Shown: piece by piece, positions 36,020 to 52,511 of the stretch
How the letters are laid out: every line of letters begins with the position of its first letter
Position numbering within the stretch: the stretch's first letter is position 1
Origin: Mycobacteriales bacterium
Lineage (GTDB): Bacteria > Actinomycetota > Actinomycetes > Mycobacteriales > SCTD01
Assembly (NCBI GenBank): GCA_035540755.1
Contig: DATLGD010000164.1
Span: 12-64,011, forward strand
Direction of reading: 5' to 3'
Length of the DNA stretch: 64,000 bases
Notes under the pieces: model-generated
Seen by the model: the letters and a program-made list of their open reading frames with translations, nothing else
Told to the model about the DNA's origin: nothing
Database searches by the model: none
Made by a program: the position numbers and the translations under genes

Positions 36020-36985
36020 CTAGTCCATCCGGCCGTCGTCGCCGTACTCCGACAGGGCCAGGGCGGCCTCCCGGCGCACGTCTGCGGCGAGGTCGTCGGG
36101 GGCGAGCACCCGGCCGTGCGGCCCGAGCCGCAGCGCGAGCCGGCGCACCCAGCCGGCGTCGGCGACGCGCAGCGTGACGACCAGGCCGCCGTCGCTGCTC
36201 TCCTTCACCGACTCGCACGGGTGGTACTCGGCGACCCAGGCCGCGGCTGGGCGCAGCGCGAGGGTGACCAGCAGGGCGTCGGGCGAGGGGCGGAACAGCC
36301 CCTGCGAGACGTCGCGCGGCTCGGCGTGCGGTGGCGGCTCGGCGGGGAGGTCGAGCAGCTGCACGTCCTCGACCCGGTCGAGCCGGAACAGCCGGACTCC
36401 CTCGGTGCGGCGGCACCAGGCCTCGAGGTAGGTGCGCCCCTCGACGACGAGCACGCGCATCGGGTCGACGTCCCGGGCGGTGGTCTCGTCGCGGGCGGGC
36501 ACGTAGTAGGTCAGGTGCAGCCGGCGCCGGCTGTCGAGCGCCTGCTGCACGACCGGCAGAACCCGCTCCTCGCCCTCGACGATGACCTCGACCCGGTCGG
36601 CGGGCAGGGCCGAGGAGCCGGCGGCCTGCTCGACCTTCGCGAGCGCGCGGTCGACGGCGTCGCGCGAGGACAGCCCCGGGGTCTCGGCGAGCGCCCGCAG
36701 CGCCACGACGAGGGCGAGCGCCTCGTCGACGGTCAGCCGCAGCGGACGCTCGACGCCGGCGTCCTGCACGAGGGTGACGGTCTCGCCCTCGAAGGCGAAG
36801 TCGATGAGGTCGCCCGGGCCGTGCCCCGGCAGGCCGCACACCCAGAGCAGGTCCAGCTCCTTGCGCAGCCGCTGCTCGTTGATGCCGAACTCGCGGGCGA
36901 CGTCGGCGATCGCCGCGCCGGGGTGCGACTGCAGGTACGGCAGCAGGGCGAGCAGCCGCGAGAGCTGCGCCGAGGTGCCGCTCAC
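36020..36985 (-). CDS. pafC: Proteasome accessory factor C (HTH-WYL regulator)
   Basis: 321 aa from GTG 36985: SRLLALLPYLQSHPG..IADVAREFGI.E.QLRKEL.LLWVCGLPG and a WYL-type region (LHLTYYVPARDETTARDVDPMRV..VEGRTYLEAWC). A GTGA overlap joins it to pafB. Confidence 0.88.
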   Translation of the reverse strand: MSGTSAQLSRLLALLPYLQSHPGAAIADVAREFGINEQRLRKELDLLWVCGLPGHGPGDLIDFAFEGETVTLVQDAGVERPLRLTVDEALALVVALRALAETPGLSSRDAVDRALAKVEQAAGSSALPADRVEVIVEGEERVLPVVQQALDSRRRLHLTYYVPARDETTARDVDPMRVLVVEGRTYLEAWCRRTEGVRLFRLDRVEDVQLLDLPAEPPPHAEPRDVSQGLFRPSPDALLVTLALRPAAAWVAEYHPCESVKESSDGGLVVTLRVADAGWVRRLALRLGPHGRVLAPDDLAADVRREAALALSEYGDDGRMD

Positions 36986-37938
36986 GAGCGGGCCAGGGCG
37001 CTCAGCCGGCGCACGACGGCCTCGCGGGCCTGCGGTGGGCCGACGACCACGGCGTCCGCGCCGTAGCCGGCGACCCGGTCGGCCAGGCGCTCGGGGTCGG
37101 AGAACCCGATCTCGACGACGTCCCATCCCTCTCGCTCGTCCGGGCGGGAGGCGAGCGACTCGCGTCGCAGCTCCCAGCCGGCCCCCGCACGCAGGCAGAC
37201 GGTCGCCGTCTCGCGGGGCTCGTCCGCGGCCAGAGCGGCGACCGCGGCGACCGGGTCGAGGCCGCTGGGCGGCACGACGGCGCCGGGCTCGCCCTCGAGA
37301 GCGACCTCGCCCACCACGCGGGACAGCCGGAAGACGCGCTGCGCGCCACGGACGACGTCGTGGCCCACCAGGTACCAGCGACCCCGCCAGGACACGACGC
37401 TCCACGGCTCGACGTGCCGCGCCTCGGGTGCGGAACGCCCGCCGGCCCGGTAGGAGAAGCGCACGGCCCGGCCGTCGCGCACGGCCTCCCAGCAGCGCGA
37501 GAACGCCGGCTCGCTGGCGGCCACCCGGGGCTCGAGCAGGGCAGGAGCCGACGGAGCCTCCACGCCGGCGGCGCGGAGCTTCAGCAGCGCGCTGGCGGTG
37601 GCGTCGGCCAGGGGCGCGGACTGCCAGAGGCGCGCGGCAAGCCCCAGAGCGGCGGCCTCGTCCGGCTCCAGCGAGATCTCGGGGAGCTCGTAGTCGCGGC
37701 GGGCGATGCGGTAGCCCGGCTCGTCGTCGTGCGCCGCGCTGTTGGTGCCCGTCTCGAGCGGGATGCCGAGCTCACGCAGCTCGTCCTTGTCCCGCTCGAA
37801 CATGCGGCGGAAGGAGTCCTCGGTGTCCTGGTCGTAGCCCGGGACGGCCGCGCGGATCTGCTGCACGGTCAGGAACCGCCGGGTGGCGAGCAGGCAGATG
37901 ACCAGGTTGAGCAGTCGCTCGGTCTTCTTCGCCGACAC
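36982..37938 (-). CDS. pafB: Proteasome accessory factor B (HTH-WYL regulator)
   Basis: 318 aa from GTG 37938: KTERLLNLVICLLATRRFLTVQQIR..VPGY....E.SF.RMFERDKDELRELGIPLET and a WYL region (VRFSYRAGG....RHVEPWSVVSWRGRWYLVGHD). Confidence 0.88.
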   Translation of the reverse strand: MSAKKTERLLNLVICLLATRRFLTVQQIRAAVPGYDQDTEDSFRRMFERDKDELRELGIPLETGTNSAAHDDEPGYRIARRDYELPEISLEPDEAAALGLAARLWQSAPLADATASALLKLRAAGVEAPSAPALLEPRVAASEPAFSRCWEAVRDGRAVRFSYRAGGRSAPEARHVEPWSVVSWRGRWYLVGHDVVRGAQRVFRLSRVVGEVALEGEPGAVVPPSGLDPVAAVAALAADEPRETATVCLRAGAGWELRRESLASRPDEREGWDVVEIGFSDPERLADRVAGYGADAVVVGPPQAREAVVRRLSALARS

Positions 37939-38013
37939 GAGGCGGGACGCTAGTGCAGACCGGGCCGGGCGGGGGCCGGATGTGCACGGGCGGGTCGCGC
38001 GTACCCTCCCCCG

Positions 38014-39108
38014 GTGATCACCTGGCGCCGCGGCACGGTGCGCGAGGTGCGCCGGGCCTGGCGCGGCGCGGTGGAGCTGGTCGTGGCCCTGGAGGCCGAC
38101 GGACCGCCGGAGGTCGGACCGCCTGAGGTGCGCGCGCTGGCGCACCCGGACCTGGTCGGAACGCCGGAGCCGGGTGACGCCGTCCTGCTCAACACCACCG
38201 CCGTCGACCTCGGCCTCGGCACCGGCGGATACGCGCTGGTCGTGGCCCTCCCCGACCGGCTGCCGCCGGACCGGACCGGGCCGGGGCACCTGGTCAAGGC
38301 CCGGTACACCCCTCTGCAGGCCGTGGTCCTCGGCGCGGACGAGCCGGCGGCGCCCTCCCACGCGGTGCTGGCCGATGACCGGCCGCTGGCGGCGCCCGGA
38401 CTGCCGGTGGTGGTGGCCGACCTGCACTCGTCGCTGCCCGCGGTGCTCGCCGGGGTCCTCGACGCCCGTCCGGAGGCCCGGGTCGCCTACGTCATGACCG
38501 ACGGCGGCGCCCTGCCGCTCTGGTTCTCGCGCACGGTGGCCGCGCTCTGCAGCGGCGCGGCGCCCGGTCGCCTCGTCGGCACCGTGACGGTCGGGCAGGC
38601 CTTCGGCGGCGACCTCGAGACGGTCACGCTGCACTCCGGCCTGCTCGCCGCCGCCCGGGTGCTGCACGCCGACGTCGCCGTGGTGACCCAGGGCCCCGGC
38701 AACCTGGGCACCGGCACGGCCTGGGGCTTCTCCGGCGTCGCTGCCGGTGAGGCGGTCAACGCGGCCGCGGCCGTGGGAGCCCGCCCGGTGGCGGTGCTGC
38801 GCATGTCGGAGGCCGACCCTAGGCCCCGCCACCGGGGGGTCAGCCACCACAGCGTCACCGCCTACGGACGGGTGGCGCTCGCCCCTGCCGACGTCGTCGT
38901 GCCGTCGTCGTGGGCGGCACTGGTCGAGCCGGTGCGGCCGGCCCTGGGGCGGCACCGGCTGGTCGAGGTCGACGACGACGGCCTGCGCGCGGCGCTCGAG
39001 CCCTGGGCCGGCCTGCTCTCGACGATGGGCCGCGGTCTGGCCGAGGACCCGGTGGCCTTCGTCGCCGCGGCCGCTGCCGGACGGCACGCCACCGGGCTGC
39101 TGGCGTGA
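38014..39108 (+). CDS. DUF3866-family protein
   Basis: 364 aa with the remembered family pattern: NTTAVDLGLGTGGYALVV....GHLVKARYTPLQ...VTQGPGNLGTGT.WGFSG...RHRG.SHHS. Confidence 0.7.
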   Translation: MITWRRGTVREVRRAWRGAVELVVALEADGPPEVGPPEVRALAHPDLVGTPEPGDAVLLNTTAVDLGLGTGGYALVVALPDRLPPDRTGPGHLVKARYTPLQAVVLGADEPAAPSHAVLADDRPLAAPGLPVVVADLHSSLPAVLAGVLDARPEARVAYVMTDGGALPLWFSRTVAALCSGAAPGRLVGTVTVGQAFGGDLETVTLHSGLLAAARVLHADVAVVTQGPGNLGTGTAWGFSGVAAGEAVNAAAAVGARPVAVLRMSEADPRPRHRGVSHHSVTAYGRVALAPADVVVPSSWAALVEPVRPALGRHRLVEVDDDGLRAALEPWAGLLSTMGRGLAEDPVAFVAAAAAGRHATGLLA

Positions 39109-40595
39109 GGACCGCGCGGCTCGACGCCCGGCAGCGCCTCGCCCGGCGCTTCGCCGCGACGATGTCGCTGGCGATGATCGGCTCGAACACCATCGGCGCC
39201 GCAGTCGTGTTCACCTACCTGACCTTCGTCGTGCCCGACCGGCCCACCGACAGCCCGACCGCGACCCTGGTGAACACGATCGTCGCGGCCGCCTACCTGC
39301 TCCTCGCGCTCGTCGTGGGCACCATCGGCAGCTTCCTGCTGCAGCGCCGCCTGCTCCGCTGGCTGCGGCCGGGGCACGTCATCGGCCCGGAGGACCGCCG
39401 GACGACGCTGCGCCTGCCGGCCCGCCTCGTGCGCTTCTACGGCGCGCTGTGGGCGGTCGCCGTCGTCGTCTTCGCGGTGCTGAACCTGCCCCGGTCGCTC
39501 GCCGGAGGGCTCGACGTCGTCGCGACCATCGCCGCGGGCGGCGCGACGACCTGCGCGCTGTGCTACCTGCTGGCCGAGCGCATCGTCCGGCCGCTGGTCG
39601 CGGAGGTGATGGGCGACGGCTCCGACCCGCCGCCGGTCGTGCTCGGTGTGCGCCGCCGCGTGCTGCTCTCCTGGGCCCTCGGCACCGGGATCCCGCTGCT
39701 CGGCATCGCCCTGGCGGTGGTGCCCGACGGCCGTGAGGAGCCGGTCGGTGCCCTGCCGGTGCTGTTCCTGTGCGGGGTGGGCCTGGCCGTCGGACTGCTC
39801 GCGATGGACGTCGCCGCCCGCTCGGTCAGCGAGCCGGTGCAGACGATGACCGGCGCCCTCCGTGCGGTCGGCGAGGGCCGCCTCGACAGCGCCGTCCCGG
39901 TGGACGACGTGAGCGAGCTCGGGCAGCTGCAGGCCGGCTTCAACGCGATGGTGGCGGGGCTGCGCGAGCGCGAGCAGCTGCGCGACCTGTTCGGGCGCCA
40001 GGTCGGCACCGCGGCTGCCCGGCTCTCGCTCGAGCAGGGCGTGCAGCTCGGCGGCGAGCGCCGGGACGTCGCCGTGCTGTTCGTCGACGTCGTCGGGTCG
40101 ACGTCGCTGGCGGTCGAGGCGGAGCCGGAGGAGGTGGTGCGGCGGCTGAACGAGTTCTTCGCCGTCGTGGTCGACGTCGTGACCGCCCACCACGGCTGGG
40201 TGAACAAGTTCGAGGGCGACGCCGCGCTCTGCGTCTTCGGCGCGCCCGAGCGGCGGACCGACGCCGCCGCCTGCGCACTCGCGTGCGCCCGGGTCATGGC
40301 CGGGCGGCTGTCACCGCTGCCGCTGGACGCGGCGATCGGCGTCAGTGCCGGGCCGGTGGTCGCCGGGCACATCGGCACCGAGGAGCGCTTCGAGTACACC
40401 GTCATCGGCGACCCGGTGAACGCCGCCGCCCGGCTCACCGACCTGGCCAAGAAGGAGCCGCGGCGGGTGCTCGCCGACGCCGCCGTCGTGGCCGCCGCCG
40501 GACCGGAGTCCGCCGAGTGGGAGGAGTGCGGGCAGGCCGTGCTGCGCGGCCGGGCGAGGCCGACCGGGCTCTCCCGGCCGAGGGCCGGCCGCTAG
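39105..40595 (+). CDS. Membrane-anchored HAMP-domain class III adenylate/guanylate cyclase
   Basis: 496 aa from GTG 39105, which overlaps the DUF3866 stop as GTGA. N-terminal TM segments and a HAMP-like linker (SELGQLQAGFNAMVAGL) precede the cyclase core (VAVLFVDVVGSTSLA, NKFEGDAALCVFGAP, YTVIGDPVNAAARL). Confidence 0.85.
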   Translation: MRTARLDARQRLARRFAATMSLAMIGSNTIGAAVVFTYLTFVVPDRPTDSPTATLVNTIVAAAYLLLALVVGTIGSFLLQRRLLRWLRPGHVIGPEDRRTTLRLPARLVRFYGALWAVAVVVFAVLNLPRSLAGGLDVVATIAAGGATTCALCYLLAERIVRPLVAEVMGDGSDPPPVVLGVRRRVLLSWALGTGIPLLGIALAVVPDGREEPVGALPVLFLCGVGLAVGLLAMDVAARSVSEPVQTMTGALRAVGEGRLDSAVPVDDVSELGQLQAGFNAMVAGLREREQLRDLFGRQVGTAAARLSLEQGVQLGGERRDVAVLFVDVVGSTSLAVEAEPEEVVRRLNEFFAVVVDVVTAHHGWVNKFEGDAALCVFGAPERRTDAAACALACARVMAGRLSPLPLDAAIGVSAGPVVAGHIGTEERFEYTVIGDPVNAAARLTDLAKKEPRRVLADAAVVAAAGPESAEWEECGQAVLRGRARPTGLSRPRAGR

Positions 40596-40972
40596 GAGAC
40601 GCCCAGCAGGTCGACGACGAACACCAGCGTCTCGTTCGGGGCGATCACACCGCCGGCGCCGCGGGCGCCGTAGCCCAGGTGCGGCGGGATCGTCAGGCGG
40701 CGGCGCCCGCCGACCTTCATCCCGGCCACGCCCTGGTCCCAGCCGCCGATGACCCGGCCGGCCCCGAGCGGGAACGAGAACGGCTCCCCGCGGTCCCAGG
40801 ACGCGTCGAACTGCCGCCCGGTCGACCAGGAGTGCCCGACGTAGTGCATGGTGCAGGTGGTGCCCGGCACGGCCTCCCTCCCGTCGCCGACGGCGAGGTC
40901 CTCCATCTGCAGCTCCTGCGGCGGCGGGCCGGAAGGGATCTCGACGGTCGGCTTGCTGATCGGGGCGCTCAT
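40592..40972 (-). CDS. FKBP-type peptidyl-prolyl cis-trans isomerase (cytosolic type)
   Basis: 126 aa: HYVGHSWSTGRQFDASWDRGEPFSFPLGAGRVIGGWDQGVAGMKVGGRRRLTIPPHLGYG. It shares a CTAG stop overlap with the convergent cyclase gene. Confidence 0.88.
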   Translation of the reverse strand: MSAPISKPTVEIPSGPPPQELQMEDLAVGDGREAVPGTTCTMHYVGHSWSTGRQFDASWDRGEPFSFPLGAGRVIGGWDQGVAGMKVGGRRRLTIPPHLGYGARGAGGVIAPNETLVFVVDLLGVS

Positions 40973-40985
40973 GGCGCCCACGCTG

Positions 40986-42344
40986 TCACATGGACGCGAT
41001 GAGCTTGTCGACGCGGTCGTCGACGGAGCGGAACGGGTCCTTGCAGAGCACGGTGCGCTGCGCCTGGTCGTTGAGCTTGAGGTGCACCCAGTCGACGGTG
41101 AAGTCGCGCCGCTTGTCCTGGGCGTGCCGGATGAACTCACCGCGCAGCCGCGCCCGGGTGGTCTGCGGCGGCACCGACTTGGCCTCGAAGACCGCCAGGT
41201 CGGTGGTTGCCCGCGCGACCGCGCCCTTCTTCTCCAGCAGGTAGTACAGGCCCCGGTCCCGGTGCACGTCGTGGTAGGCGAGGTCGAGCTGGGCCACCCG
41301 CGGCGACGAGAGCGGCAGGTCGTGCTTGGCCCGGTAGCGCTCGATCAGCTGGTACTTGGTCACCCAGTCGATCTCGCGGTCGACCAGCGACAGGTCTCCG
41401 GTGTCGACCGCCTGCAGCGTGCGGCCCCACAGGTCGAGGACGCGGTCGACGGTGGCGTCGGACCCGCGCCGGGCGATGAAGTCGACCGCCTTGCCGTAGT
41501 ACTCCCGCTGGATCTCGAGGGCGCTGGCCTCCCGCCCGTTGACCAGCTTGACCTTGCGCCGGCCGGTGATGTCGTGGCTGATCTCGCGGATCGCCCGGAT
41601 CGGGTTCTCCAGGGTGAGGTCGCGCATGACGACCCCGGCCTCGATCATCCGCAGCACCAGGTCGGCGGTGCCCACCTTGAGCAGCGTCGTGACCTCGTTC
41701 ATGTTGCTGTCGCCGACGATGACGTGCAGCCGGCGGAACCGCTCGGCGTCGGCGTGCGGCTCGTCCCTGGTGTTGATGATCGGGCGCGAGCGGGTAGTCG
41801 CCGACGACACGCCCTCCCAGATGTGCTCGGCCCGCTGGCTCACGCAGTAGACGGCGCCGCGCGGCGTCTGCAGCACCTTGCCCGCGCCGGCGATGATCTG
41901 GCGCGACACCAGGAACGGGATGAGGACGTCCGCGAGCCGGCTGAACTCCCCGTGCCGCCCCACGAGGTAGTTCTCGTGGCAGCCGTAGGAGTTGCCGGCC
42001 GAGTCGGTGTTGTTCTTGAACAGGTAGATGTCGCCGGCGATGCCCTCCTCGCGCAGCCGCCGCTCGGCGTCCACGAGCAGGCCCTCGAGGATGCGCTCGC
42101 CGGCCTTGTCGTGCGTGACCAGGTCGACGGCGTCGTCGCACTCGGGCGTCGCGTACTCGGGATGGGAGCCGACGTCGAGGTACAGGCGGGCGCCGTTGCG
42201 CAGGAAGACGTTCGAGCTCCGGCCCCAGCTGACCACCCGGCGGAACAGGTAGCGCGCCACCTCGTCCGGCGAGAGCCGCCGCTGCCCGCGGAAGGTGCAG
42301 GTGACGCCGTACTCGTTCTCGATCCCGAAGATCCGACGCTCGAT
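40986..42344 (-). CDS. pafA: Pup--protein ligase PafA (non-canonical ATC start inferred)
   Basis: Colinear with the remembered Mtb PafA throughout: [16 protein letters not shown]...[48 protein letters not shown] ... [21 protein letters not shown]. The track ORF starts only at GTG 42260, but the conserved N-terminus continues in frame up to a TGA at 42351-42353. An ATC at 42344-42342 aligns with Met1 and gives 452 aa. Confidence 0.88.
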
Positions 42345-42432: not shown

Positions 42433-43032
42433 TCAGCGGATCGGGGTGAGCAGGCGGAAGTAGATCGCCGAGCGCACCGTGCCGCCGAGGTTGAGCGTTC
42501 CGGTGTGACCGAGCTGCGGGTGCATGACCAGCGCGTCACCGGCCTCCAGCGGCACCGGCACAGGCTCGGTGTGCTCACCGCGGTGCGAGCGCGGCCACAC
42601 CCAGGCCACCCCGTCGTCAGGTCCCGCGGTGGTCAGCGCGACCCCGACGACGCCGCGGTAGCGCTTGTCCTGCGCCCACGGCGGAAGGGCGTCGACGTGC
42701 GGCTCGAGCGGCCAGTCCTGCGCCTCGTCGGGGAAGCGCAGCAGGATCTGCGGCTCGGCCCAGTCGTCGCCCTCCTGCCAGCCGAGCAGCTCGGCGGCCG
42801 GATCCGGCAGCACGCCCCACACCTCGGGTTCCCAGCGCAGGTGGGGGAAGAAGGTTCCTGGCTGCCACGCGCGGATCTGCTCGGCTGTCAGGCCCTGCCT
42901 GCGGATCTCGAGGTTCAGCAGCCGCAGCGCGGCGGCCACCCGGGAGGCAGAGACCACCTCGCGCAGGACGGTGTAGCCCTCCTGCTCCAGGTCGGTGCGG
43001 GCGGCCTGCAGAGCGGGGGCCGAGGTCGTCAC
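42433..43032 (-). CDS. Small Fe(II)/2-oxoglutarate dioxygenase-like protein (PhyH-type HxD...H)
   Basis: 199 aa from GTG 43032 with EGYTVLREVV, WPLEPHVDALPPW (HxD) and LVMHPQLGHTG. This is short for a PhyH protein. It is the last gene of the glycosyltransferase operon. Confidence 0.55.
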   Translation of the reverse strand: MTTSAPALQAARTDLEQEGYTVLREVVSASRVAAALRLLNLEIRRQGLTAEQIRAWQPGTFFPHLRWEPEVWGVLPDPAAELLGWQEGDDWAEPQILLRFPDEAQDWPLEPHVDALPPWAQDKRYRGVVGVALTTAGPDDGVAWVWPRSHRGEHTEPVPVPLEAGDALVMHPQLGHTGTLNLGGTVRSAIYFRLLTPIR

Positions 43033-43070: not shown

Positions 43071-44162
43071 CTAGCGACCGGCCGCGCGCACCTCGGCGAC
43101 GTGCGCCTCGAGCTCGTCGGCGCGGTGCTCGGCCGTGTGCTCGGCCAGCACCCTCCTGCGAGCCGCCTCCCCGATCCGTGCGCGCCGGTCGTCGTCGACC
43201 GCCCGCAGGTGCTCGACGACGTCTGCCGCCGACCGCGCGACGAGGATCTCCTCCCCCGGGGTGAAGAAGGCGTCCAGGCCCGCCCACACGTCCGAGACGA
43301 CGGGCACACCGCACGCCGCGGCCTCGAACAGGCGCACGCTGGGCGACCAGCCGGCGCGGACCATGTCGGCGCGGGTGACGTTCAGGGTCAGCCGCTGGGC
43401 GCTGTAGAAGCCGACGTGCTCGGCCGGCGGCAGGTGCTCGATGCGCTGCACGTTGGCCGGCCACGGGACGTCCGCCGGGTACTGCGGCCCGGCGACCACG
43501 AAACGCTCCTCCGGCAGGGCGCGGGCCGGGGCCGCGAGCAGCTCGTCCAGCACCGGCTGGCGGTCGGCGCTCCACGTGCCGAGGTAGCCCAGGGTCCAGT
43601 GCCGCTCGACCTCGACGGGGGCGTACGCGCTCTCGTCGACCAGGCAGTGGAAGGCCCGCGCCCGGGGCGAGCCGAGCGCCTGCTCGAGATGGTCGAGGGT
43701 CGGCCCGCCGGTGAACGACAGGTAGAGGTCGTAGCCCGGCACGAGCTCCGGGACGAGGTACTCGCACTCCCCCCGCCCGAGCGCCGCCAGCGTGACGGGA
43801 GTGTCGATGTCGTAGAAGGCGGTGACGCCGGTGGCGGTCTCCTGCACCCACCGCCCGACGTCCACCCCCTGCGGGACGTACGAGCCGACGACCACGAGGT
43901 CGGCGTCGCGCACGGCCGCGGCGTGCTCGTCGCGCAGCTGCTCCATCGAGGCGTACAGGGCGGTGCGGCCCCAGGGCGGCTCCGGCAGATCGCGGTGCTC
44001 GGCGTACCAGGGGACGTCGCGCTCGAGGAACAGCACGTCGTGCCCGCGCCCGTCCAGCGCCCGGACCAGGGCCCGGAAGTTCGTGGCGTGCCCGTTGCCC
44101 CACGAGGAGGTGATGGACAGCCCGAGGACGACGATGCACAGCCCCTCGGCGGACGGCCTCAT
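43071..44162 (-). CDS. CgeB-like / DUF3880-type glycosyltransferase, paralog 1
   Basis: 363 aa. N-terminal SSWGNGHATNFRALVRALDGRGHDV and C-terminal GT1-like region NVTRADMVRAGWSPSVRLFEAAACGVPVVSDVWAGLDAFFTPGEEILVA. A 4-nt overlap joins it to paralog 2. Confidence 0.72.
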   Translation of the reverse strand: MRPSAEGLCIVVLGLSITSSWGNGHATNFRALVRALDGRGHDVLFLERDVPWYAEHRDLPEPPWGRTALYASMEQLRDEHAAAVRDADLVVVGSYVPQGVDVGRWVQETATGVTAFYDIDTPVTLAALGRGECEYLVPELVPGYDLYLSFTGGPTLDHLEQALGSPRARAFHCLVDESAYAPVEVERHWTLGYLGTWSADRQPVLDELLAAPARALPEERFVVAGPQYPADVPWPANVQRIEHLPPAEHVGFYSAQRLTLNVTRADMVRAGWSPSVRLFEAAACGVPVVSDVWAGLDAFFTPGEEILVARSAADVVEHLRAVDDDRRARIGEAARRRVLAEHTAEHRADELEAHVAEVRAAGR

Positions 44163-45229
44163 CGCACCCGCTCGCGCAGGATCTCGTCGACCTGCACCGC
44201 CCGGTGCCCGTAGGTGTGCTCGGAGAGCACCCGCTCCAGCGCCGCCTTGCCGAGCAGCCGCGCCCGCTCGGGATCGAGGTCGCGCAGGTGATCGGCGACC
44301 TGCCGGCCGTCGTAGGCCACGAGCACCTCGCGGTCCGGCACGAGGAAGTCCTCGATACCCTGCCAGCCGTCGGTGATCTGGCAGGCCGCGGCCCCGGCGA
44401 CCTCGAAGACGCGGGTGGCGGGTGACCACCCGTTGGCGACCATGCTGTCGCGGGTGACGTTCGAGACCGCGAGCGGCGTGGAGTTGAACGCGTTGTGGTC
44501 GGCGGTGCCGACGTGACCGAGCAGGCGCACGTTCGGCGGCACCGGCTTGTCGCCCCAGCCGTTGCCGGCCAGCAGGAACGTGCGGTCCGGCAGCAGCGAG
44601 GCCGGCCGCAGGAAGAACTCCTCGACGCGCGCCTCGCGGTCCGGCAGCCGGTTCGCGAGCAGGGCCAGGTCGACGTCGAAGCGCGGGTCGGGGTCGGCCG
44701 GGTGGTGCGTCGTCGGGTCGAGCGCGTTGTAGACGACGATGCACTCGCGGGCGCCGAGAGCGGTGTAGCGCTGCACCACCGGGTCGCCGCCGCCGTAGGT
44801 CAGCACCAGGTCGTACGACGGCAGCAGGGCCCGGAAGGAGTCCGCCGGGTCGTCCTCCATCCGCGACAGCGTCGCGGGCGCGTCGACGTCCCAGAAGGCG
44901 GTGCAGGTGCCGAGCGAGAGCACGGCGTCCTCGAGCACGTCGTCGAAGACCCCGACGCCGCTGGTCTTCACGACCAGGTCGGCGCCGCGCGCCCGCTCCA
45001 CCGTCGCCCGCACCGCGGCCTCGTCCGGCGCCTCGTAGATGACGACCGTCGCCCAGTCCGGGTCGGGGATGTCGCGGTGCTCCTGCCGCTCGTAGGCGAC
45101 CGGCTCGTAGAACGTGACGCGGTGGCCGAGCTCGTGCAGGCCGCGGATGATGCCGCGGTAGTAGGTGCACGAGCCGTTCCACCACGAGGAGACCAGGCTC
45201 GATCCGAAGAAGGCGATGTCCAGGCTCAT
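44159..45229 (-). CDS. CgeB-like / DUF3880-type glycosyltransferase, paralog 2
   Basis: 356 aa with SSWWNGSCTYYRGIIRGLHELGHRV and NVTRDSMVANGWSPATRVFEVAGAAACQITDGWQGIEDFLVPDREVLVA. It has 4-nt overlaps on both sides. Confidence 0.72.
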   Translation of the reverse strand: MSLDIAFFGSSLVSSWWNGSCTYYRGIIRGLHELGHRVTFYEPVAYERQEHRDIPDPDWATVVIYEAPDEAAVRATVERARGADLVVKTSGVGVFDDVLEDAVLSLGTCTAFWDVDAPATLSRMEDDPADSFRALLPSYDLVLTYGGGDPVVQRYTALGARECIVVYNALDPTTHHPADPDPRFDVDLALLANRLPDREARVEEFFLRPASLLPDRTFLLAGNGWGDKPVPPNVRLLGHVGTADHNAFNSTPLAVSNVTRDSMVANGWSPATRVFEVAGAAACQITDGWQGIEDFLVPDREVLVAYDGRQVADHLRDLDPERARLLGKAALERVLSEHTYGHRAVQVDEILRERVR

Positions 45230-46344
45230 GCGGTGCTCCCTGCGGTCGGGACGGTGTGCAGGCCGAGCTCGGCCACGACCGCCAGCAGCTCGTCGACGCG
45301 GTGCGCGCAGGTGTGCCGCGCGCCGATGGTGCGCAGGCCGCTCTCCCGCAGCGACTGCGCCAGGTCCGGGTCGTGCAGGACGTCGCGCAGGTGCGCCTCC
45401 ATCTGCGCGCCGTCCGTCGCGACGAGGTAGTCGCTGCCGGGCGTGAACAGGCCCTCCGCGTCGTCCCACGGGGCGGTGACCAGCGGGATGCCGCAGGCCA
45501 GCGCCTCGAACGGCCGGATGGTCGGGATGCCCGGCAGCGCCTCGACGTACGGCCGCCGCGGCACGTGCACGGTGACGCCGTGCGCGGCGAAGGCCCGCGG
45601 GGCGAGGTGGTTGGCGATCCACCCGCCGTAGCGGATGCCCGCCTCCCTCAGCGCCTGCTTCGCGCCAACCGGGTAGCGCACCCCGTGCACCGTCGCCCGC
45701 AGCCCGAGCCGGTGCACCGGGGCGAGCAGGAACTCGTGCAGCTCGGCCGTGCGCTCGCCGTCGCCCCAGTTGCCGATCCAGACCAGGTCTCCCTCGCGCT
45801 GCACTCCGTCGACGGGGGTGAAGACGCGGGCGTCGGCGGCCTCGTGCCACGTCCAGGCGCGCCCGGTCCAGCCGCGGTCGAGGTAGATCCGCCGGATCAC
45901 CTCGCCGAAGGCGAGCACGCCGTCGTACTGCGAGAGGTCGTAGGCCGCCATGTCCTCAGGTGCGGTGGCAGCCCGGTGGTGGGTGTCGTGGAAGAGCAGC
46001 CGGTAGCCGCCCGCGGCCTTGTGCGCGCCGACCGCGGCGACCAGCGACGGCTCGTTCCACTCGTGCACCAGGACGAGGTCGGCGCCCTCGGTCATGGCGG
46101 GCACGTCGGGCTCGAGCGGGTCGTAGACCCGGCTGCGCAGCCGCGGGAACGCCCGGAGCACGTCGTCGACGGCGCCGCGGCCCTGGTCGACGACGAGGTT
46201 CGCGCGGCTCCAGGCGTCCAGCGGCTCGTGGACCCGGACGTCGTGGCCGCGGTCGAGCAGGTCGCGAACGACGCCACGCAGGAAGTGCGCGTTGCCGTGG
46301 TTCCAGTCGCTGACCAGCGAGTGGCAGAACACGACGATCCTCAT
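45226..46344 (-). CDS. CgeB-like / DUF3880-type glycosyltransferase, paralog 3 (more divergent)
   Basis: 372 aa with SDWNHGNAHFLRGVVRDLLDRGHDV and HVPRRPYVEALPGIPTIRPFEALACGIPLVTAPWDDAEGLFTPGSDYLVA. It has 4-nt overlaps on both sides. Confidence 0.72.
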   Translation of the reverse strand: MRIVVFCHSLVSDWNHGNAHFLRGVVRDLLDRGHDVRVHEPLDAWSRANLVVDQGRGAVDDVLRAFPRLRSRVYDPLEPDVPAMTEGADLVLVHEWNEPSLVAAVGAHKAAGGYRLLFHDTHHRAATAPEDMAAYDLSQYDGVLAFGEVIRRIYLDRGWTGRAWTWHEAADARVFTPVDGVQREGDLVWIGNWGDGERTAELHEFLLAPVHRLGLRATVHGVRYPVGAKQALREAGIRYGGWIANHLAPRAFAAHGVTVHVPRRPYVEALPGIPTIRPFEALACGIPLVTAPWDDAEGLFTPGSDYLVATDGAQMEAHLRDVLHDPDLAQSLRESGLRTIGARHTCAHRVDELLAVVAELGLHTVPTAGSTA

Positions 46345-47369
46345 CGCGCACCCACCGGCAGAGCGGCATAGGCGGCGAGGTAGCCGGCGGCGGTCCGCTC
46401 CGGGGTGTAGGTCAGCGCCCGGGCCCGGGCAGCGGCACCTCGCGACGGGTCCTGCAGCGCCTCCTCCAGCGCGTCCACGAGCGAGGCGTCGTCGTGCACG
46501 TAGGTGGCGGCCTCGCCCCACACCTCGCGCAGGCTCGGGAGGTCCCCCAGCACCAGCGCGCAGCCGGCGAGAGCGGCCTCGAGGATGCCGAGCCCGAACG
46601 GCTCGTAGCGCGCCGGGGCGGCGTAGACCGCTGCCCGGGCCAGGAGCGCAGCCAGCGCCGGGAAGGCTAAGGGGCCGAGCACGTCGACACCGGGCAGGTC
46701 GCCCGGTCCCTCCCCGGCCACCCGCACCGGTGCGGACAGCGACGGCGCGACGCGGCAGAGCGCGTCCACACCCTTGGCGTCGTCCCAGGTCCGGCCGGCG
46801 GCCAGCACGAGCGGCTCCTTGTCGGCCGGCGCGAGGAGCTCCCCCCGGCGGCAGTTCGGGACGACGGTCGCGCCCTCGAAGCCGTACGAGGCGCGCAGGT
46901 CGGCCGCGACGGCGGCCGTCGGCGCGACGACCCGCCCGGCGGCGCGCAGCCCCGCGGCCACCGCCGCCCGGTAGACGTCCCACTCGGCCGGCGCCTCAGT
47001 GCCCCGCACGGCGCGGAACCAGGAGACGACGTCGGAGTGCGCGACGACCAGCGGGCGCGTGCGCCAGGCCAGGGCGGCGTGCACGTAGCCGTTGAGGTGC
47101 ACGACGTCGGGCTGCAGCTCCTGCTCCAGCGAGAGCAGCCAGCCGCCGGCCTGCTCGACGCCCGGCCACGGGTCGTGCTGCCACTCGAGCGGGAAGGTCG
47201 AGACGTGCACCGAGGCGAAGGCGCCGGCCTCCTCCGCCTGCGCCGGCGACAGGCCGCGCCCCATGGTCGCCAGGTGCACCTCCACCCCGCAGGGGCGCAG
47301 TGCGTGCGCGAGCTCGACCGCGTAGGTCCAGACGCCGCCGACGGTGTCGGCCGTCATGAGCACCCTCAC
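46341..47369 (-). CDS. GT4-family (GT-B, retaining-type) glycosyltransferase
   Basis: About 342 aa: MTADTVGGVWTYAVELA and the E-x7-E region YEPFGLGILEAALAGCALVLGD. A GTG start at 47369 gives a GTGA overlap; the ATG at 47357 is the alternative start. Confidence 0.8.
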   Translation of the reverse strand: MRVLMTADTVGGVWTYAVELAHALRPCGVEVHLATMGRGLSPAQAEEAGAFASVHVSTFPLEWQHDPWPGVEQAGGWLLSLEQELQPDVVHLNGYVHAALAWRTRPLVVAHSDVVSWFRAVRGTEAPAEWDVYRAAVAAGLRAAGRVVAPTAAVAADLRASYGFEGATVVPNCRRGELLAPADKEPLVLAAGRTWDDAKGVDALCRVAPSLSAPVRVAGEGPGDLPGVDVLGPLAFPALAALLARAAVYAAPARYEPFGLGILEAALAGCALVLGDLPSLREVWGEAATYVHDDASLVDALEEALQDPSRGAAARARALTYTPERTAAGYLAAYAALPVGAR

Positions 47370-48340
47370 CGGCCGTACACCCGGTCGAGCACCGCAGCGG
47401 TGGTGACCAGCTCCTCGTTGGCCGGGTCGTACCGCTCGCCCGCGGCGAGCCGCCGGGTCCAGTCGACGGCGGCGCGGCCGCCCCAGGCGTCCGGCGGCTC
47501 GACCAGCACCGAGCGACTCGTCCCGGTGTGCCGGGTGGCGCGGAAGTCGTAGAAGGAGCCCCCGACGTTGGTGAGCGCGACGGCGCCGGAGGTGCCGTGG
47601 AAGGTCGCGGCGATGACCGCCTCCTGCCCGGCGTGCAGGTTCCACGAGCAGCCGAGCGTCAGGACCCGGCCACCGGTGAGGTCGATCCTCGCGGTGGCGA
47701 AGTCCTCGACGACGTCGGTGCGGCCGTCGAGCGGGCGGCCGCCGGCGAACAGCCGCGAGCAGACGCCCTCGACTCCGGCTCCGGGCAGCAGGTGCAGCGC
47801 GAGGTCGACCAGGTGGGTGCCGAGGTCGATGACGCAGCCGCCGCCGGACAGCTCCGGGTCCCGGAACCACGGCTTGTCCGGCCCGTAGGCGTTGTGGAAG
47901 ACGAGCTCCGCGGCGTAGACCTCGCCGAGCTCGCCGGACTCGAGCACCTTGCGCAGCGCCTCGGTGGCGGCCAGGTGGCGGTAGGACAGGTCGACCCCGA
48001 GCAGCCGGTCGGCGACGCGGGCGGCAGCCACCACCTCCGCGGTCTCGGCGGCGGTGCGGCCGAGCGGCTTCTGGCAGAAGACGGCGCTGCCGCCCCGCAG
48101 CGCCGCGAGCGTCTGCTCGGCGTGCAGCGCGCTCGGGGTGGCGATGACGACGCCGTCGAGGCCGGCTGCGAGCAGCTCCTCCGGACGGACGGCCTCGGCA
48201 CCCGCCTCGGCGGCGGCCTCCGCGGCGGCCTGGGGGGAGGCGTCCGCAACCAGCGTCGCCTCGGCCAGCCCGCTGGCGACGATCGCCCGCATCCGGTCCC
48301 GGCCGATCCACCCGACGCCGAGGAAGCCCAGCCGGGTCAT
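47366..48340 (-). CDS. Gfo/Idh/MocA-family NAD(P)-dependent oxidoreductase
   Basis: 324 aa with a Rossmann N-terminus (RLGFLGVGWIGRDR), the consensus EKP-like motif (FCQKPL) and a C-terminal alpha/beta domain. Confidence 0.85.
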   Translation of the reverse strand: MTRLGFLGVGWIGRDRMRAIVASGLAEATLVADASPQAAAEAAAEAGAEAVRPEELLAAGLDGVVIATPSALHAEQTLAALRGGSAVFCQKPLGRTAAETAEVVAAARVADRLLGVDLSYRHLAATEALRKVLESGELGEVYAAELVFHNAYGPDKPWFRDPELSGGGCVIDLGTHLVDLALHLLPGAGVEGVCSRLFAGGRPLDGRTDVVEDFATARIDLTGGRVLTLGCSWNLHAGQEAVIAATFHGTSGAVALTNVGGSFYDFRATRHTGTSRSVLVEPPDAWGGRAAVDWTRRLAAGERYDPANEELVTTAAVLDRVYGR

Positions 48341-49272
48341 GAGGTGACCAGGGCCTTGACGAAGCCCTCCGGCCGCTCGGCGGCGGCATCCATCGCCGCC
48401 TTCAGGTCCTCCAGCGGGAAGGCGTGCGTGTAGAGCGGCCGCGGGTCGAGCCGGCCGGACGCGACGGCGTCGACAGCTGCGCGGATCCCCCGCAGCTGCA
48501 CCTCGGGGTCGCGCTCGTGGGCGTTGACGACGTCGATCCCGCGCCAGTTCCACAGCTGGACGTTCACCGACCGCAGGCCGTCCTGGTGGAATCCGGCGAT
48601 GACCAGCCGGCCGCCGAAGCCGGTGAGCTCTCCGGACAGGTCGAGCGGCCAGGGCGCGCCGGTTCCCTCGACCACCCGCTCGCAGAACGTCCCTCCGGTC
48701 AGGCCGGCGACCTCGTCGATCACGCGCGCGTGGTCGTCCATGAGGACCGTCTCGGCGGCCCCCATCTGCCGGGCCACCTGCAGGGCCGACTCCTTCCGAG
48801 CGACCGCGACGACGCGGCAGCCGGCCGCCGCGGCCAGGGCCACGAGCAGCGCGCCGAGGAAGCCCACGCCGACCACCGCGACGGTCTGCCCCGGCTCGAA
48901 GCCGCTGCGCCGGGCGGCGTTGAACGCGCAGCCGATCGCCTCGCCGGGGAACGGCTGGCCGTCCAGCTCGGGCGGCAGCGGGACGAGCCGGTCCGCCGGC
49001 ACCACCAGCTCGTCGGTGAAGGCGTCCTCGGCCAGCAGCGCGACGCGCGTGCCTTCGCCGCGCCCCTCCACGACCCGACCCCAGGCCTCGTGGCCGGGGT
49101 TGCCCGGCCGCAGCGGGTAGTCGAACCACGGTCGCCCCTCCCAGGCGGGCAGGTTCGAGCCGCAAACGCCGCAGCCCTCGACCGCGACCCGGACGCTGCC
49201 GGGGACCAGCGGCGGTGAGGCGCCCTGCACCAGCTCGACGGACCCGGGGCTCGTCACCACCGCGCTGCGCAC
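48337..49272 (-). CDS. Zinc-type medium-chain alcohol/polyol dehydrogenase
   Basis: 311 aa with CGVCGSNL, GHEAWGRV and the NAD-binding motif VAVVGVGFLGALLV. Confidence 0.85.
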   Translation of the reverse strand: MRSAVVTSPGSVELVQGASPPLVPGSVRVAVEGCGVCGSNLPAWEGRPWFDYPLRPGNPGHEAWGRVVEGRGEGTRVALLAEDAFTDELVVPADRLVPLPPELDGQPFPGEAIGCAFNAARRSGFEPGQTVAVVGVGFLGALLVALAAAAGCRVVAVARKESALQVARQMGAAETVLMDDHARVIDEVAGLTGGTFCERVVEGTGAPWPLDLSGELTGFGGRLVIAGFHQDGLRSVNVQLWNWRGIDVVNAHERDPEVQLRGIRAAVDAVASGRLDPRPLYTHAFPLEDLKAAMDAAAERPEGFVKALVTS

Positions 49273-49280: not shown

Positions 49281-50318
49281 TCAGCCCGCTCTCGACGCCG
49301 CGACCCGCGCGCCCGAGGACGCCAGCCAGTCGTGCAGCAGCTTCACGCCCTCCTCGGGCGAGGTCTTCGGCGCCCAGCCAGTGGCCTCGGCGAAGCGGCG
49401 GGTGTCGGAGACGTAGTAGCGCTGGTCACCGACGCGCCAGTCGCCGAAGCGGACCTCCGGAGCCGGGCCTAGCGTCCCGATGAGCTCCAGCAGCTCGAGC
49501 AGGCTGACCGTGCTCTGCGGGCCGCCACCCATGTTGAAGGCCTGTCCCCGGAGGTCGTCGGCGGCGCCGATCGCGAGCTCCATCGCGTCGAGCAGGTCGT
49601 CGACGTAGAGCACGTCGCGGACCTGCCGGCCGTCGCCGTACAGCGTGATCGGGGCGCGGTCGCGGGCCTGCAGGAGGAAGTGCGCGACCCAGCCCTGGTC
49701 CTCGTTGCCCTGCTGGTGCGGCCCGTAGATGCAGCTCATCCGGAAGACGACGTGCGGCATCCCGTAGGTCTGCGCGTAGTCCAGGACGTACTGGTCCGCC
49801 CCGCCCTTGGAGCAGCCGTACGGGCTGGCGAACTGCAGCGGCCAGTGCTCGCCGATGCCGTGCTCGCGCACCTGCTCGTCGACCGGCTCGTACCGCCCGC
49901 CCCGCTGCTCGACCCGCAACCCGGCGAGCTTGCCGTAGACCTTGTTGGTGGAGGTGAACAGCAGCGGCGGTGGGTCGCTGCGACGGCGCAGCTCCTCGAG
50001 CAGCGCGATCGTGCCGCCGAGGTTGACCGAGTAGTCGTGCACCGGCTCGGTCACCGACGTCGTCACCGCGACCTGCGCGGCGAAGTGGAAGACCCGGTCG
50101 GCCTTCCGGGCGGCGGTGCGGACGTCGTCGGCGCTGCGGACGTCGCCGCGCACGACCTCGAGGCGGTCGGGATGGGTGTGCTCCAGCCACTGCAGGTTGG
50201 TCCGGACACCGGGGCGCGACAGGTCGTCGAGCACGACCACCCGCTCCCCCGCCTGCAGCAGGCGGGCCGCGAGGTTGGTCCCGACGAAGCCGGCTCCTCC
50301 GGTGACGAGGGAGGTCAT
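49281..50318 (-). CDS. NAD-dependent SDR epimerase/dehydratase (CDP-paratose 2-epimerase / UDP-hexose 4-epimerase-like)
   Basis: 345 aa from the ATG at 50318: LVTGGAGFVGTNL, SPYGCSKGGADQY (YxxxK), QGWVAHF. Only the C-terminal third of the 1067-aa track ORF is real. Confidence 0.85.
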   Translation of the reverse strand: MTSLVTGGAGFVGTNLAARLLQAGERVVVLDDLSRPGVRTNLQWLEHTHPDRLEVVRGDVRSADDVRTAARKADRVFHFAAQVAVTTSVTEPVHDYSVNLGGTIALLEELRRRSDPPPLLFTSTNKVYGKLAGLRVEQRGGRYEPVDEQVREHGIGEHWPLQFASPYGCSKGGADQYVLDYAQTYGMPHVVFRMSCIYGPHQQGNEDQGWVAHFLLQARDRAPITLYGDGRQVRDVLYVDDLLDAMELAIGAADDLRGQAFNMGGGPQSTVSLLELLELIGTLGPAPEVRFGDWRVGDQRYYVSDTRRFAEATGWAPKTSPEEGVKLLHDWLASSGARVAASRAG

Positions 50319-51433
50319 ACGGCGAGCCCGCGCCGGGCCAGCTCGGCGGTCGCGGCATCGACGCCGTCCACCGCCACCTGCCCCTCGAGCCACTCGGCCA
50401 GCTCGGTCAGGCCCTTCTCCAGCGTCACCTGGGGCACGTACCCGAGCACCTGCCCGGCGCGCGAGACGTCGGCGAAGCAGTGCCGGATGTCGCCGACGCG
50501 GAACGTCCCGGTGGCCTCCGGGGTGATGTCGGTCCGGTCGAGGATCTGCGCCAGCGAGGTGGCGATCTCGTTGACCGTGATGCTCTGGCCGCTGCCGACG
50601 TTGAGCACCTCCCCGGCCGCCGCCTCGCCCGCGGACAGGGCGAGGGCGCAGGCCCGGGCCACGTCGTGCACGCTGACGAAGTCGCGCTGCTGCGCGCCGT
50701 CCTCGAAGATCAGCGGCGGGCGGCCGTTGAGCAGCCGCGAGGCGAAGATCGCCAGCACGCCGGTGTAGGGGTTCGACAGGGCCTGGTAGGGCCCGTAGGC
50801 GTTGAAGAAGCGCAGCGCGACGGTCGGGACCTTGTACGCCTCGCCGAACATCAGGCAGAGCCGCTCCTGGTCGTACTTGCCCAGGGCGTAGACGCTGGAC
50901 AGCGTCGGCGGCTTGTCCTCCGCGGTAGGCACCGGGGTCAGGGCCTGCCCCTGCGGCCCCACCGGCTCCCAGCGCCCGGCCTCGAGGTCGCTGCGCCGGC
51001 GCATCACGGCGGGCACCGGGTCGCCGACGGCGTCGACGTAGCGGCCCTCGCCGTACACGCTCATGCTGGACGCCACGAGCAGCTGCTCCACCGGCGTCTC
51101 GGCCAGCGCCTCGAGCAGCACGCCGGTGCCGACGCCGTTGACCGAGGTGTACTCGGCGATCTCGTACATGCTCTGGCCGACGCCGACCCGGGCCGCCAGG
51201 TGCGCCACCCGGTCCGCGCCCGCGAGGGCGCGGCGGACGGCCTCGGGGTCGCGGACGTCGCCGACCACCAGCTCGACGTCGTCCGGGAGGTAGCCCGGCC
51301 GCTCGCCGGAGGGGTGGACCTGAGGGTGGAGCACGTCGAGCACCCGGACCCGGTCCCCGGCCTCCAGCAGCTCGCGGGCGAGGTGAGCGCCGATGAAGCC
51401 GGCGCCGCCGGTGATGAGGACGGTGCGGGACAT
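50315..51433 (-). CDS. NAD-dependent SDR epimerase/dehydratase
   Basis: 372 aa: [25 protein letters not shown] (YxxxK), RFFNAYGP. It carries an insertion relative to GalE-type enzymes. It is the first gene of the minus-strand operon. Confidence 0.85.
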
Positions 51434-51554
51434 GCGTTCTCTCTTCGCTCGGCGAACGGCTGATCCTCAGATCTGGTCCATCTCCGGACAACCTAAACGA
51501 GATGCTGCTGATGCTGCTGACGTCGATCCGCGGCGCGTCGGCCATAGTGTGCCG

Positions 51555-52511
51555 ATGACGAAGAGGACCGTGGTGACGGGCGGCGCCGGCTTCCTGGGGT
51601 CGCACCTGTGCGAGCAGCTGCTGCAGCGGGACCACGAGGTGGTGGCCCTCGACAACTTCCTGACCGGCTCGGCGGCCAACGTCGAGCACCTGATGGAGGA
51701 CGACCGCTTCCGGCTGATCAAGGCCGACGTCACCGACTACGTGCACGTTCCGGGGCCGGTGGACGACGTCCTGCACTTCGCCAGCCCTGCCTCGCCGGTC
51801 GACTACCTCGAGCTGCCGATCGAGACGATGAAGGTCGGCTCGATCGGCACGCTGCACGCCCTCGGCCTGGCCAAGGAGAAGGGCGCCCGCTTCCTGCTCG
51901 CCTCCACCTCCGAGACCTACGGGGACCCGCAGGTCCACCCCCAGCCCGAGGACTACTGGGGGCACGTGAACCCGGTGGGCCCCCGAGGGGTGTACGACGA
52001 GGCGAAGCGGTTCGCCGAGGCCCTGACGATGGCCTACCGGCGCACCCACGACGTCGACACGGCGATCGTGCGGATCTTCAACACCTACGGCCCCCGGATG
52101 CGGCCCAACGACGGACGGGCCATCCCGACCTTTATCCGCCAGGCGCTGGCCGACGAGCCGATCACGGTCGCCGGCGACGGCACCCAGACCCGCAGCGTCT
52201 GCTACGTGGACGACCTGGTCACCGGCCTGCTGGCGCTGCTGGAGTCCGACCTGGCTGGGCCGGTCAACATCGGCAACCCGCAGGAGCTGTCGATGCTCGA
52301 GCTGGCGACGCGCATCGTCGACCTCACCGGCTCCTCGAGCCCGATCACCTTCGTCGAGCGGCCGGTCGACGACCCGAGCGTGCGCCGGCCCGACATCCGG
52401 CTGGCCCGGAACGCGCTGGGCTGGGAGCCGACCGTCGACCTCGACGCCGGCCTGCGGCAGACGATCGCCTGGTTCGAGCGGCACGAGGCGCTGCAGCGCG
52501 ACGTCGCCTGA
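51555..52511 (+). CDS. uxs: UDP-glucuronate decarboxylase (UDP-xylose synthase)
   Basis: 318 aa from the ATG at 51555: [90 protein letters not shown]. It is divergent from the glycosyltransferase operon. Confidence 0.88.

Follow-up and report, generated by a model that had tools for sequence, protein, structure and literature searches.

What do three related glycosyltransferase-like proteins do when their genes stand side by side, each joined to the next by overlapping start and stop codons? The question is raised by a 64,000-nt stretch of DNA from a member of the Mycobacteriales (contig DATLGD010000164.1; the whole stretch is hereafter called the window), in which three consecutive minus-strand genes, named C, B and A in order of transcription, occupy positions 43071–46344. 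Comparison with related sequences tips the balance towards the view that C, B and A are three successive, non-redundant GT-B transferases of the Pfam family PF13524, with B and A working in close proximity.

Three paralogous genes and their protein family

The window contains approximately 75% G+C, and a gene map based on the G+C content of third codon positions (GC3) showed a long minus-strand operon. Within it, paralog C (46344–45226, 372 aa) is transcribed first of the triplet, followed by B (45229–44159, 356 aa) and A (44162–43071, 363 aa), each encoding a PF13524 glycosyltransferase-like protein. All three are clean open reading frames (ORFs) upon translation of the minus strand, and the three N-terminal strings quoted in an earlier note on this DNA are present verbatim in the translations. 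That note had taken the proteins for paralogs, and pairwise BLASTP over essentially the full length upheld their mutual homology at 28–35% identity (A–B, 35%, E = 1e-59; A–C, 30%, E = 2e-27; B–C, 28%, E = 2e-16). Each protein also carries signature motifs of its own: HSLxSDWNHGNAHFLRG, VHEWN, FHDTHHRA, HVPRRPY and IPTIRPFEALACGIP in C; GSSLVSxYWNGAATYYRG, WDVDAPATL, TYGGG, NRLPDREARVEEFF and SPATRVFEAAGAGAC in B; and GLSITSSWGNGHAT, FLERDVPWY, FYDIDTPVTL, LSFTGGPTL and GWSPSVRLFEAAACG in A. A C-terminal GWSP pattern, initially ascribed to all three, is present in A and B, whereas C has PGIPTIRPFEA.

The genes are joined by ATGA start/stop overlaps, which are visible in the raw sequence exactly where they had been reported: at 44159–44162 (B/A), at 45226–45229 (C/B) and at 46341–46344, where the stop of an upstream glycosyltransferase family 4 (GT4) gene meets the start of C. 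Further 4-nt overlaps lie upstream in the operon, between two epimerase genes (Epi1/Epi2, 50315–50318) and between the genes for an alcohol dehydrogenase (ADH) and a Gfo/Idh/MocA oxidoreductase (GFO; 48337–48340), and GFO and GT4 probably overlap through a GTGA at 47366–47369; coupling thus spans the whole operon. We therefore rejected the ATGA overlaps as a special mark of the triplet, and the original description of a strictly coupled triplet was an over-reading.

A Pfam search placed PF13524 (Glyco_trans_1_2, the CgeB/YkvP domain) in the C-terminal half of all three proteins at 120–151 bits against a cut-off of 25 (A, 151.1 bits, E = 2.6e-44; B, 120.2 bits, E = 9e-35; C, 119.5 bits, E = 1.4e-34), each match spanning nearly the whole 144-position model. 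DUF3880, which had been predicted together with Glyco_trans_1_2, was not detected in A, B or C at E ≤ 0.1, and that half of the prediction fell away; the broader assignment to two-domain, GT1/GT4-like proteins of the CgeB/YkvP family agrees with the PF13524 matches and the homology. Membership of the GT4 families was not supported: Glycos_transf_1 scored 16.8–17.4 bits in A and C against a cut-off of 26.4, and in the same search it had no match in B, while Glyco_transf_4 had none in A, B or C. Among the listed clusters of homologues, some 120 for each search, the only Pfam annotation was PF13524, with or without PF13692, PF13439 or PF13579. In NCBIfam, neither B nor C matched a family, and the matches of A all fell far below threshold; a PDB sequence search with A gave nothing better than marginal GT4 matches (E = 1e-3), and one with C gave none. 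Orthologues are named "spore maturation protein CgeB", "CgeB family protein" or "glycosyltransferase" in public databases. We class the proteins as GT-B transferases from a Pfam family that is named yet hardly characterised, encoded in an operon for sugar biosynthesis; a well-characterised family with a known product, which the earlier note had said would overturn its proposal, was not what the searches found, PF13524 being a family without a known product.

AlphaFold2 modelled A with high confidence (predicted local distance difference test score, pLDDT, 93.8; predicted template-modelling score, pTM, 0.91) as alternating β/α elements in two halves. A Foldseek search of this model against the PDB yielded 318 matches at E ≤ 1e-3, and the best 50 listed were all GT-B enzymes. 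Heading them were MshA, sucrose-phosphate synthase, BshA, PglA, the mannosyltransferase of methylmannose polysaccharide (MMP) synthesis and PimA, at 13–18% identity; for the retaining GT4 enzymes (MshA, BshA, sucrose-phosphate synthase, PimA/PimB' and the MMP mannosyltransferase), E-values ranged from 1e-14 to 1e-9 and template-modelling scores from 0.6 to 0.74. Both halves of a natural B–A fusion took the same GT-B fold in AlphaFold2. On these models, A is predicted to have a GT-B fold closest to that of retaining GT4 enzymes. Profile alignment with hhalign agreed, matching A to the GT4 family of the same operon at 85% probability with both domains covered; it set the N-terminal Gly-rich GNGHAT loop of A on the GT4 Gly-Gly loop and E280 of A on the second Glu of the E-x7-E motif. 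The triplet differs from the retaining GT4 enzymes in its low identity to them, in matching PF13524 instead of the Glycos_transf_1/GT4 models above threshold, and in its family motifs SxW..G.A...R, R-x-F-E-A and H-T-x-x-H-R, which are not GT4 motifs.

Conservation of the triplet across phyla

Relatives of A number in the thousands at 57–87% identity, and A matched 553 representatives at E ≤ 1e-30 in a library clustered at 50% identity. Scanning a single genome for each species yielded 80 loci, with which the window proteins were compared by tblastn; later counts were made among 84 related loci. The hosts belong to Actinomycetota, Pseudomonadota (alpha, beta and gamma), Myxococcota, Acidobacteriota, Planctomycetota, Verrucomicrobiota, Gemmatimonadota, Armatimonadota and Sumerlaeota. 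Where enough upstream DNA was available (67 loci), all of A, B and C were present in 64, from at least ten phyla, and 62 had them contiguous in the order C-B-A, usually in the context Epi1-Epi2-ADH-GFO-GT4-C-B-A. The triplet is thus kept as a unit elsewhere, which the earlier note had proposed to survey. That note had treated the host as an actinobacterium; the cassette is in fact cross-phylum and plasmid-borne and no actinobacterial peculiarity.

Orthologues were 52–92% identical to the window proteins (C, 52–81% in 61–63 loci; B, 54–92% in approximately 70 loci). By median identity, A, B, C and Epi1 are the best-conserved members of the cassette at 60–61%, and GT4 is the lowest at 47%. Because orthologues are approximately 60% identical and the paralogs approximately 30%, the triplication is older than the spread of the cassette, and the triplet most probably arose by an ancient triplication. 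An identity of approximately 60% over at least ten phyla, above that of most operon partners, implies that the hosts share one precise product, kept under strong selection.

Exceptions to the arrangement were few. In Anaeromyxobacter (L018 and L065), B and A stay together, and C lies with GT4 and the oxidoreductases in a divergent operon, and one locus (L041) has GT4 and A without B or C. Another locus is fragmentary (L009), and L001, an Actinomycetota metagenome-assembled genome from long reads and the closest genome match (A, 87%), is frameshifted, with every cassette gene split into several tblastn pieces; these broken genes look like assembly frameshifts, not pseudogenes. A fourth PF13524 paralog, 47–51% identical to A and lacking from the window, occurs in approximately 11 loci (L022, L024, L044, L057, L063 and L072 among them), where it often adjoins a sugar-1-phosphate nucleotidyltransferase.

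Three successive steps or one complex

When 202 orthologues of A, B and C were aligned, 23 columns showed one and the same residue in the three groups, with conservation of at least 90% in each, among them (A numbering) R30, E47, D118, D176, R201, R264, R277, E280, H342 and R347. Both domains, N- and C-terminal, were equally conserved in each orthologue group, and every group carries invariant motifs peculiar to itself, most of them in the acceptor-side domain. We rejected the idea that one paralog has lost its function, as all 23 of the 23 shared conserved residues are kept in all of them, and no paralog looks like a pseudoenzyme or a degenerate partner. The retained polar residues appear to fit a series of three catalytic steps better than a single catalytic subunit assisted by the other two.

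Conserved overlaps and natural fusions bear on the relationship between B and A. The 4-nt overlap is kept at B/A in 54 of 72 loci, at C/B in 40 of 62 and at GT4/C in 32 of 57, where by our own estimate a start codon in the right frame would arise by chance in at most approximately 20%. In-frame, full-length B–A fusions occur in two loci (L044 and L059), and a dedicated fusion search found at least 120 clusters at the 90% identity level, almost all of them full-length B–A fusions (approximately 100% coverage); the clusters listed (P0121 onward) measure approximately 709–843 aa and come mostly from Myxococcota. Two triple fusions add a TIGR04290 methyltransferase to B–A (P0186 and P0187, 963 and 971 aa), and in another A is fused to a PhyH domain (P0033, 583 aa). 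These last three tie tailoring enzymes physically to A, and the B–A fusions, as encoded, favour a physical association of B with A. The arrangement in Anaeromyxobacter, where B stays next to A and C has moved, counts for the same pairing.

The same fusions could be read as a sign that C, B and A form one obligate hetero-oligomeric enzyme, in which one or two subunits are catalytic and the others serve as scaffold, chaperone or acceptor-binding protein. This is unlikely in our view, despite the 1:1:1 co-occurrence in fixed order at 62 of the 67 loci, the start/stop overlaps kept across phyla, the abundance of B–A and B–A–methyltransferase fusions, and a cross-phylum identity of approximately 60%, beyond what is usual among glycosyltransferases and above that of the GT4 partner. 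Against it, all three groups keep the full set of shared residues, including the putative nucleotide-binding Arg and Glu, with no pseudo-enzyme decay; the AlphaFold2 model of a fusion has no confident interface; C is separated from B–A in Anaeromyxobacter; and A stands without B or C in L041. Heteromeric GT-B precedents are GtfA/GtfB of streptococcal serine-rich-repeat glycosylation and Alg13/Alg14. Like these and the multi-domain serial transferases of the WbdA type, the triplet consists of paralogous GT-B proteins encoded side by side, sometimes fused, for one product; unlike in GtfA/GtfB and Alg13/Alg14, where one partner has lost catalytic residues, A, B and C all keep their conserved residues.

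Three successive transferases with an associated B:A pair remain our preferred reading, and several observations weigh against it. The first Glu of the GT4 E-x7-E motif has no counterpart in any of the three paralogs, and catalysis may therefore differ from that of canonical GT4 enzymes or be absent. Translational coupling runs the length of the operon and is frequent in operons of high GC content, and it is therefore poor evidence for a complex. In the AlphaFold2 model of the B–A fusion P0121, a single-chain surrogate for a multimer, local confidence was high (pLDDT 92.6), but the pTM was 0.55, and no confident packing of B against A was obtained. The L041 arrangement indicates that the triplet is not absolutely obligatory. 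The literature searched, outside which most subscription-journal articles lie, contained no experimental study of the cassette. Lastly, the inositol link on which our view of the acceptor draws (see below) comes from neighbouring genes in a minority of the loci, 15 of 84, and the window lacks the synthase, the phosphatase and the methyltransferase concerned.

The cassette and its possible product

What would three such transferases build? C, B and A form the core of an operon of roughly ten genes, predicted to build a sugar product, that recurs with little change in soil bacteria from many phyla. For each of the window's eight cassette genes, orthologues stand in matching order in dozens of loci, and their predicted functions centre on sugars. 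Directly upstream of C, the GT4-family gene (46341–47369, minus; Glyco_transf_4 plus Glyco_trans_1_4; start probably GTG at 47369) encodes a putative priming enzyme, whose best NCBIfam matches, all weak, are MSMEG_0565-type proteins, BshA and MshA; membership in the MSMEG_0565 nitrogen-related cluster was rejected at 43 bits against a cut-off of 260. It is preceded by GFO (47366–48340, minus), which resembles sugar and inositol dehydrogenases (IolG, the inositol 2-dehydrogenase, and glycoside 3-dehydrogenases), and by the Zn-type ADH (48337–49272, minus), with the scyllo-inosose 3-dehydrogenase IolM as its best model, well under that model's cut-off. Epi2 (49281–50318, minus; Pfam Epimerase) is a short-chain dehydrogenase/reductase (SDR) epimerase closely related to CDP-tyvelose 2-epimerase (PDB 9rl0, E = 4e-78; 1orr, E = 8e-77) and a probable nucleotide-sugar C2 epimerase by homology. 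The first gene of the operon, Epi1 (50315–51433, minus), encodes an SDR NAD-dependent epimerase/dehydratase of 372 aa that is 4-epimerase-like and carries an insertion. Divergent from the operon lies a gene for UDP-glucuronate decarboxylase (UDP-xylose synthase, UXS; 51549–52511, plus; human UXS1 in the PDB, E = 6.5e-110), homologues of which are cassette members in L001, L044, L081, Sinorhizobium meliloti and Rhizobium etli.

At the other end, 38 nt downstream of A, is a gene for a PhyH-family Fe(II)/2-oxoglutarate dioxygenase (42433–43032, minus; 199 aa; Pfam PhyH, E = 4.8e-9). PhyH also follows A in the Frankiales-like loci L001–L003; it is a lineage-specific addition at the position where most cassettes have a TIGR04290 methyltransferase. 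Beyond it, the cassette borders pafA (42260–40986) directly, on the upstream side of that gene, inside the actinobacterial pafA-pafBC-tatC-helicase neighbourhood, and is consistent with an insertion into that conserved neighbourhood. The region 31194–42260 further contains an FKBP isomerase (40981–40592), a HAMP-adenylate cyclase (39105–40595), DUF3866 (38083–39108), two PafB/PafC-like WYL regulators (37938–36020), TatC (34841–33942) and a DSHCT helicase (33932–31194). High-GC3 ORFs without a Pfam match lie at 52528–53910 (minus, 460 aa), 60127–62544 (minus, 805 aa) and 54340–54891 (plus, 183 aa); the first, just beyond the UXS gene, is not kept next to the cassette in other loci.

When the ORFs of related loci were clustered all against all and targeted searches were then run, further recurrent members came to light. 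An S-adenosylmethionine (SAM) methyltransferase directly follows A in 48 of the 84 loci by tblastn, and two tested representatives passed TIGR04290 (meth_Rta_06860) at 324–326 bits (cut-off 300); the window has no homologue of it. In approximately 20 loci, the ADH–GFO pair is replaced by a B12-binding radical SAM protein (TIGR04295, B12_rSAM_oligo; 737 bits against a cut-off of 400), which suggests two alternative chemistries for one step; the radical SAM versions are mostly alphaproteobacterial (for example, L032:5357-6643 and L084:6334-7662, plus approximately 18 other loci). Both TIGR models are "hypothetical equivalogs"; curators noted the neighbourhood and gave it no function, although they reportedly described a rhizobial oligosaccharide system of some twelve genes. 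Marker genes of this TIGR04290/TIGR04295 cassette adjoin C-B-A in related loci, and by synteny the window operon is the same cassette, although it carries neither marker, with Zn-dehydrogenase plus GFO in place of the radical SAM protein and PhyH in place of the methyltransferase.

A histidine phosphatase was found in 17 of the 84 loci and an inositol-3-phosphate synthase in 15, the latter scoring 530 bits on the mycothiol INO1 model. A hydrolase-like protein of approximately 300 aa, called "beta-xylosidase" by PGAP and 64–75% conserved, is present in 24 loci (for example, L084:1428-2354, minus); it reaches only 19 bits on Glyco_hydro_cc (cut-off 21) and has no NCBIfam model, and we regard it as an unrecognised family tied to the cassette. 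A homologue search found none of these three in the window. On R. etli p42b, the tyvelose-2-epimerase-like gene is a 679-aa fusion (L083:6644-8683; WP_011427519.1) whose N-terminal domain of approximately 330 aa is weakly similar to the hydrolase-like protein (31%); in L060, L068 and L073, among other loci, that N-terminal domain stands as its own gene between Epi1 and Epi2. Among the clustered related loci, no transporter, flippase, polymerase, chain-length regulator, Wzx/Wzy or lipid-carrier-initiating transferase recurs in the cassette.

These genes can be arranged into a working scheme. The SDR epimerases, the Zn-dehydrogenase/GFO pair and the divergent UXS would remodel nucleotide sugars and possibly an inositol acceptor; GT4 would form the first glycosidic bond; C, B and A would act in a set order, each contributing one more sugar of a different kind, with B and A as a physically associated pair; and in most lineages the TIGR04290 methyltransferase would finish the product. 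The product's decoration may differ in the window, where the PhyH dioxygenase takes the methyltransferase's place after A. MshA glycosylates inositol phosphate, and where inositol-3-phosphate synthase and phosphatase are present, the gene context of the cassette parallels that of MshA. The co-occurrence of these two genes with an MshA-like GT4 in 15–17 loci suggests inositol phosphate as the acceptor, and the lack of export genes in the cassette suggests a cytoplasmic product. In a fuller scheme, GT4 would glycosylate inositol phosphate, the phosphatase would strip the phosphate, C, B and A would add three sugars, one of them probably xylose, the methyltransferase would finish the product, and the hydrolase-like protein would trim or recycle it. 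We infer from gene content the catalytic activity of all three proteins, their order of action, the identity of the acceptor and xylose as one of the sugars.

Taken to its furthest extent, this leads to a proposal that we put forward tentatively and rate as less likely than not: an undescribed class of soluble glycoside assembled in the cytoplasm. Its inositol (phosphate) core would be primed by the MshA-like GT4 and receive three different sugars, xylose among them, from C, B and A; O-methylation would follow in most lineages, and B12-radical-SAM chemistry would alter the product in some. C-B-A would be its dedicated three-enzyme assembly line, with B and A as a physical pair, carried by horizontal transfer into bacteria from soil, the rhizosphere and lichen associations in at least ten phyla.

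Alternatively, C, B and A might together be the polymerase of a repeating-unit polysaccharide, either intracellular and polymethylated (like MMP or MGLP) or a surface glycan exported via genes elsewhere; the methyltransferase would modify or cap the chain. Such polymerases typically combine fused or multi-domain glycosyltransferases with a methyltransferase (WbdA/WbdD, ManT/MeT), and the B–A and B–A–methyltransferase fusions recall them, as does the MMP mannosyltransferase among the best structural matches; the "beta-xylosidase"-like protein of 24 loci is likewise reminiscent of the MMP-cluster hydrolase. Nevertheless, this is quite improbable in our estimation: the cassette has no recurrent chain-length regulator, ABC transporter, Wzx/Wzy or lipid-carrier-initiating transferase, the likeness to the MMP enzyme is generic to GT4 at 13–18% identity, and the window contains neither the methyltransferase nor the hydrolase-like gene.

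Protein glycosylation, as proposed for CgeB of Bacillus subtilis on the spore-crust protein CgeA, is very improbable: A, B and C share with CgeB/YkvP the C-terminal PF13524 domain (E = 1e-34 to 1e-44) and the two-lobed layout of a nucleotide-sugar transferase, but they lack a detectable DUF3880 N-terminal domain, no conserved candidate substrate protein or CgeA-like gene lies in or beside the cassette in the 84 loci examined or in the window, and the triplet sits in an operon rich in sugar-nucleotide- and inositol-modifying enzymes of bacteria from many phyla, mostly non-sporulating and Gram-negative. CgeB is itself a weakly characterised, putative CgeA transferase, reported to cause a weak shift of CgeA in vitro when UDP-glucose is present (PMC13577073).

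The cassette can be followed into cultured hosts. A protein search of a plasmid collection found the cassette on 148 replicons, of which 66 were from Sinorhizobium (pSymB) and 48 from Rhizobium, with further hosts in Roseomonas, Azospirillum (megaplasmids), Paracoccus yeei and Bradyrhizobium; the patchy cross-phylum spread and the plasmid location point to horizontal transfer. On R. etli CFN42 p42b, the annotation of RHE_RS22255–22300 lists GFO, a Zn-dehydrogenase, an SDR, an epimerase, GT4, three "glycosyltransferases", a UDP-glucuronic acid decarboxylase and the TIGR04290 methyltransferase. The pSymB of S. meliloti 1021, in its region at 232–257 kb, has this gene set plus inositol-phosphate synthase and phosphatase; UniRef names its cassette UXS "UDP-xylose synthase 2", distinct from SMb20458 Uxs1, and its A orthologue "CgeB family protein". 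In Azospirillum brasilense, inositol-1-phosphate synthase, histidine phosphatase, the TIGR04290 methyltransferase and a "beta-xylosidase" are encoded divergently from the epimerase, the TIGR04295 radical SAM protein, GT4, C, B and A. A proteomic study of A. brasilense Sp7 names a "CDP-tyvelose-2-epimerase" and a nearby epimerase as FlcA-responsive under flocculation (PMC4264754); these may be products of the cassette.

Rhizobia are said to have xylose- and arabinose-containing glycans of unknown structure. The cassette is a candidate source of these glycans, and its product might be the Sinorhizobium xylose-containing glycan or else a stress or desiccation solute. The cassette could also explain UDP-xylose production by rhizobia. 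What sets it apart is a triplicated module that crosses phyla, with B–A and B–A–methyltransferase fusions and with dehydrogenase-pair and radical-SAM versions, yet no known product despite its presence in model rhizobia, in a family of CgeB/YkvP glycosyltransferases with almost no biochemistry behind it. The natural fusions provide ready constructs for studying the channelling of intermediates between paralogous GT-B enzymes, and the presence of the cassette in S. meliloti 1021, R. etli CFN42 and Azospirillum makes the question accessible to genetics in tractable bacteria.

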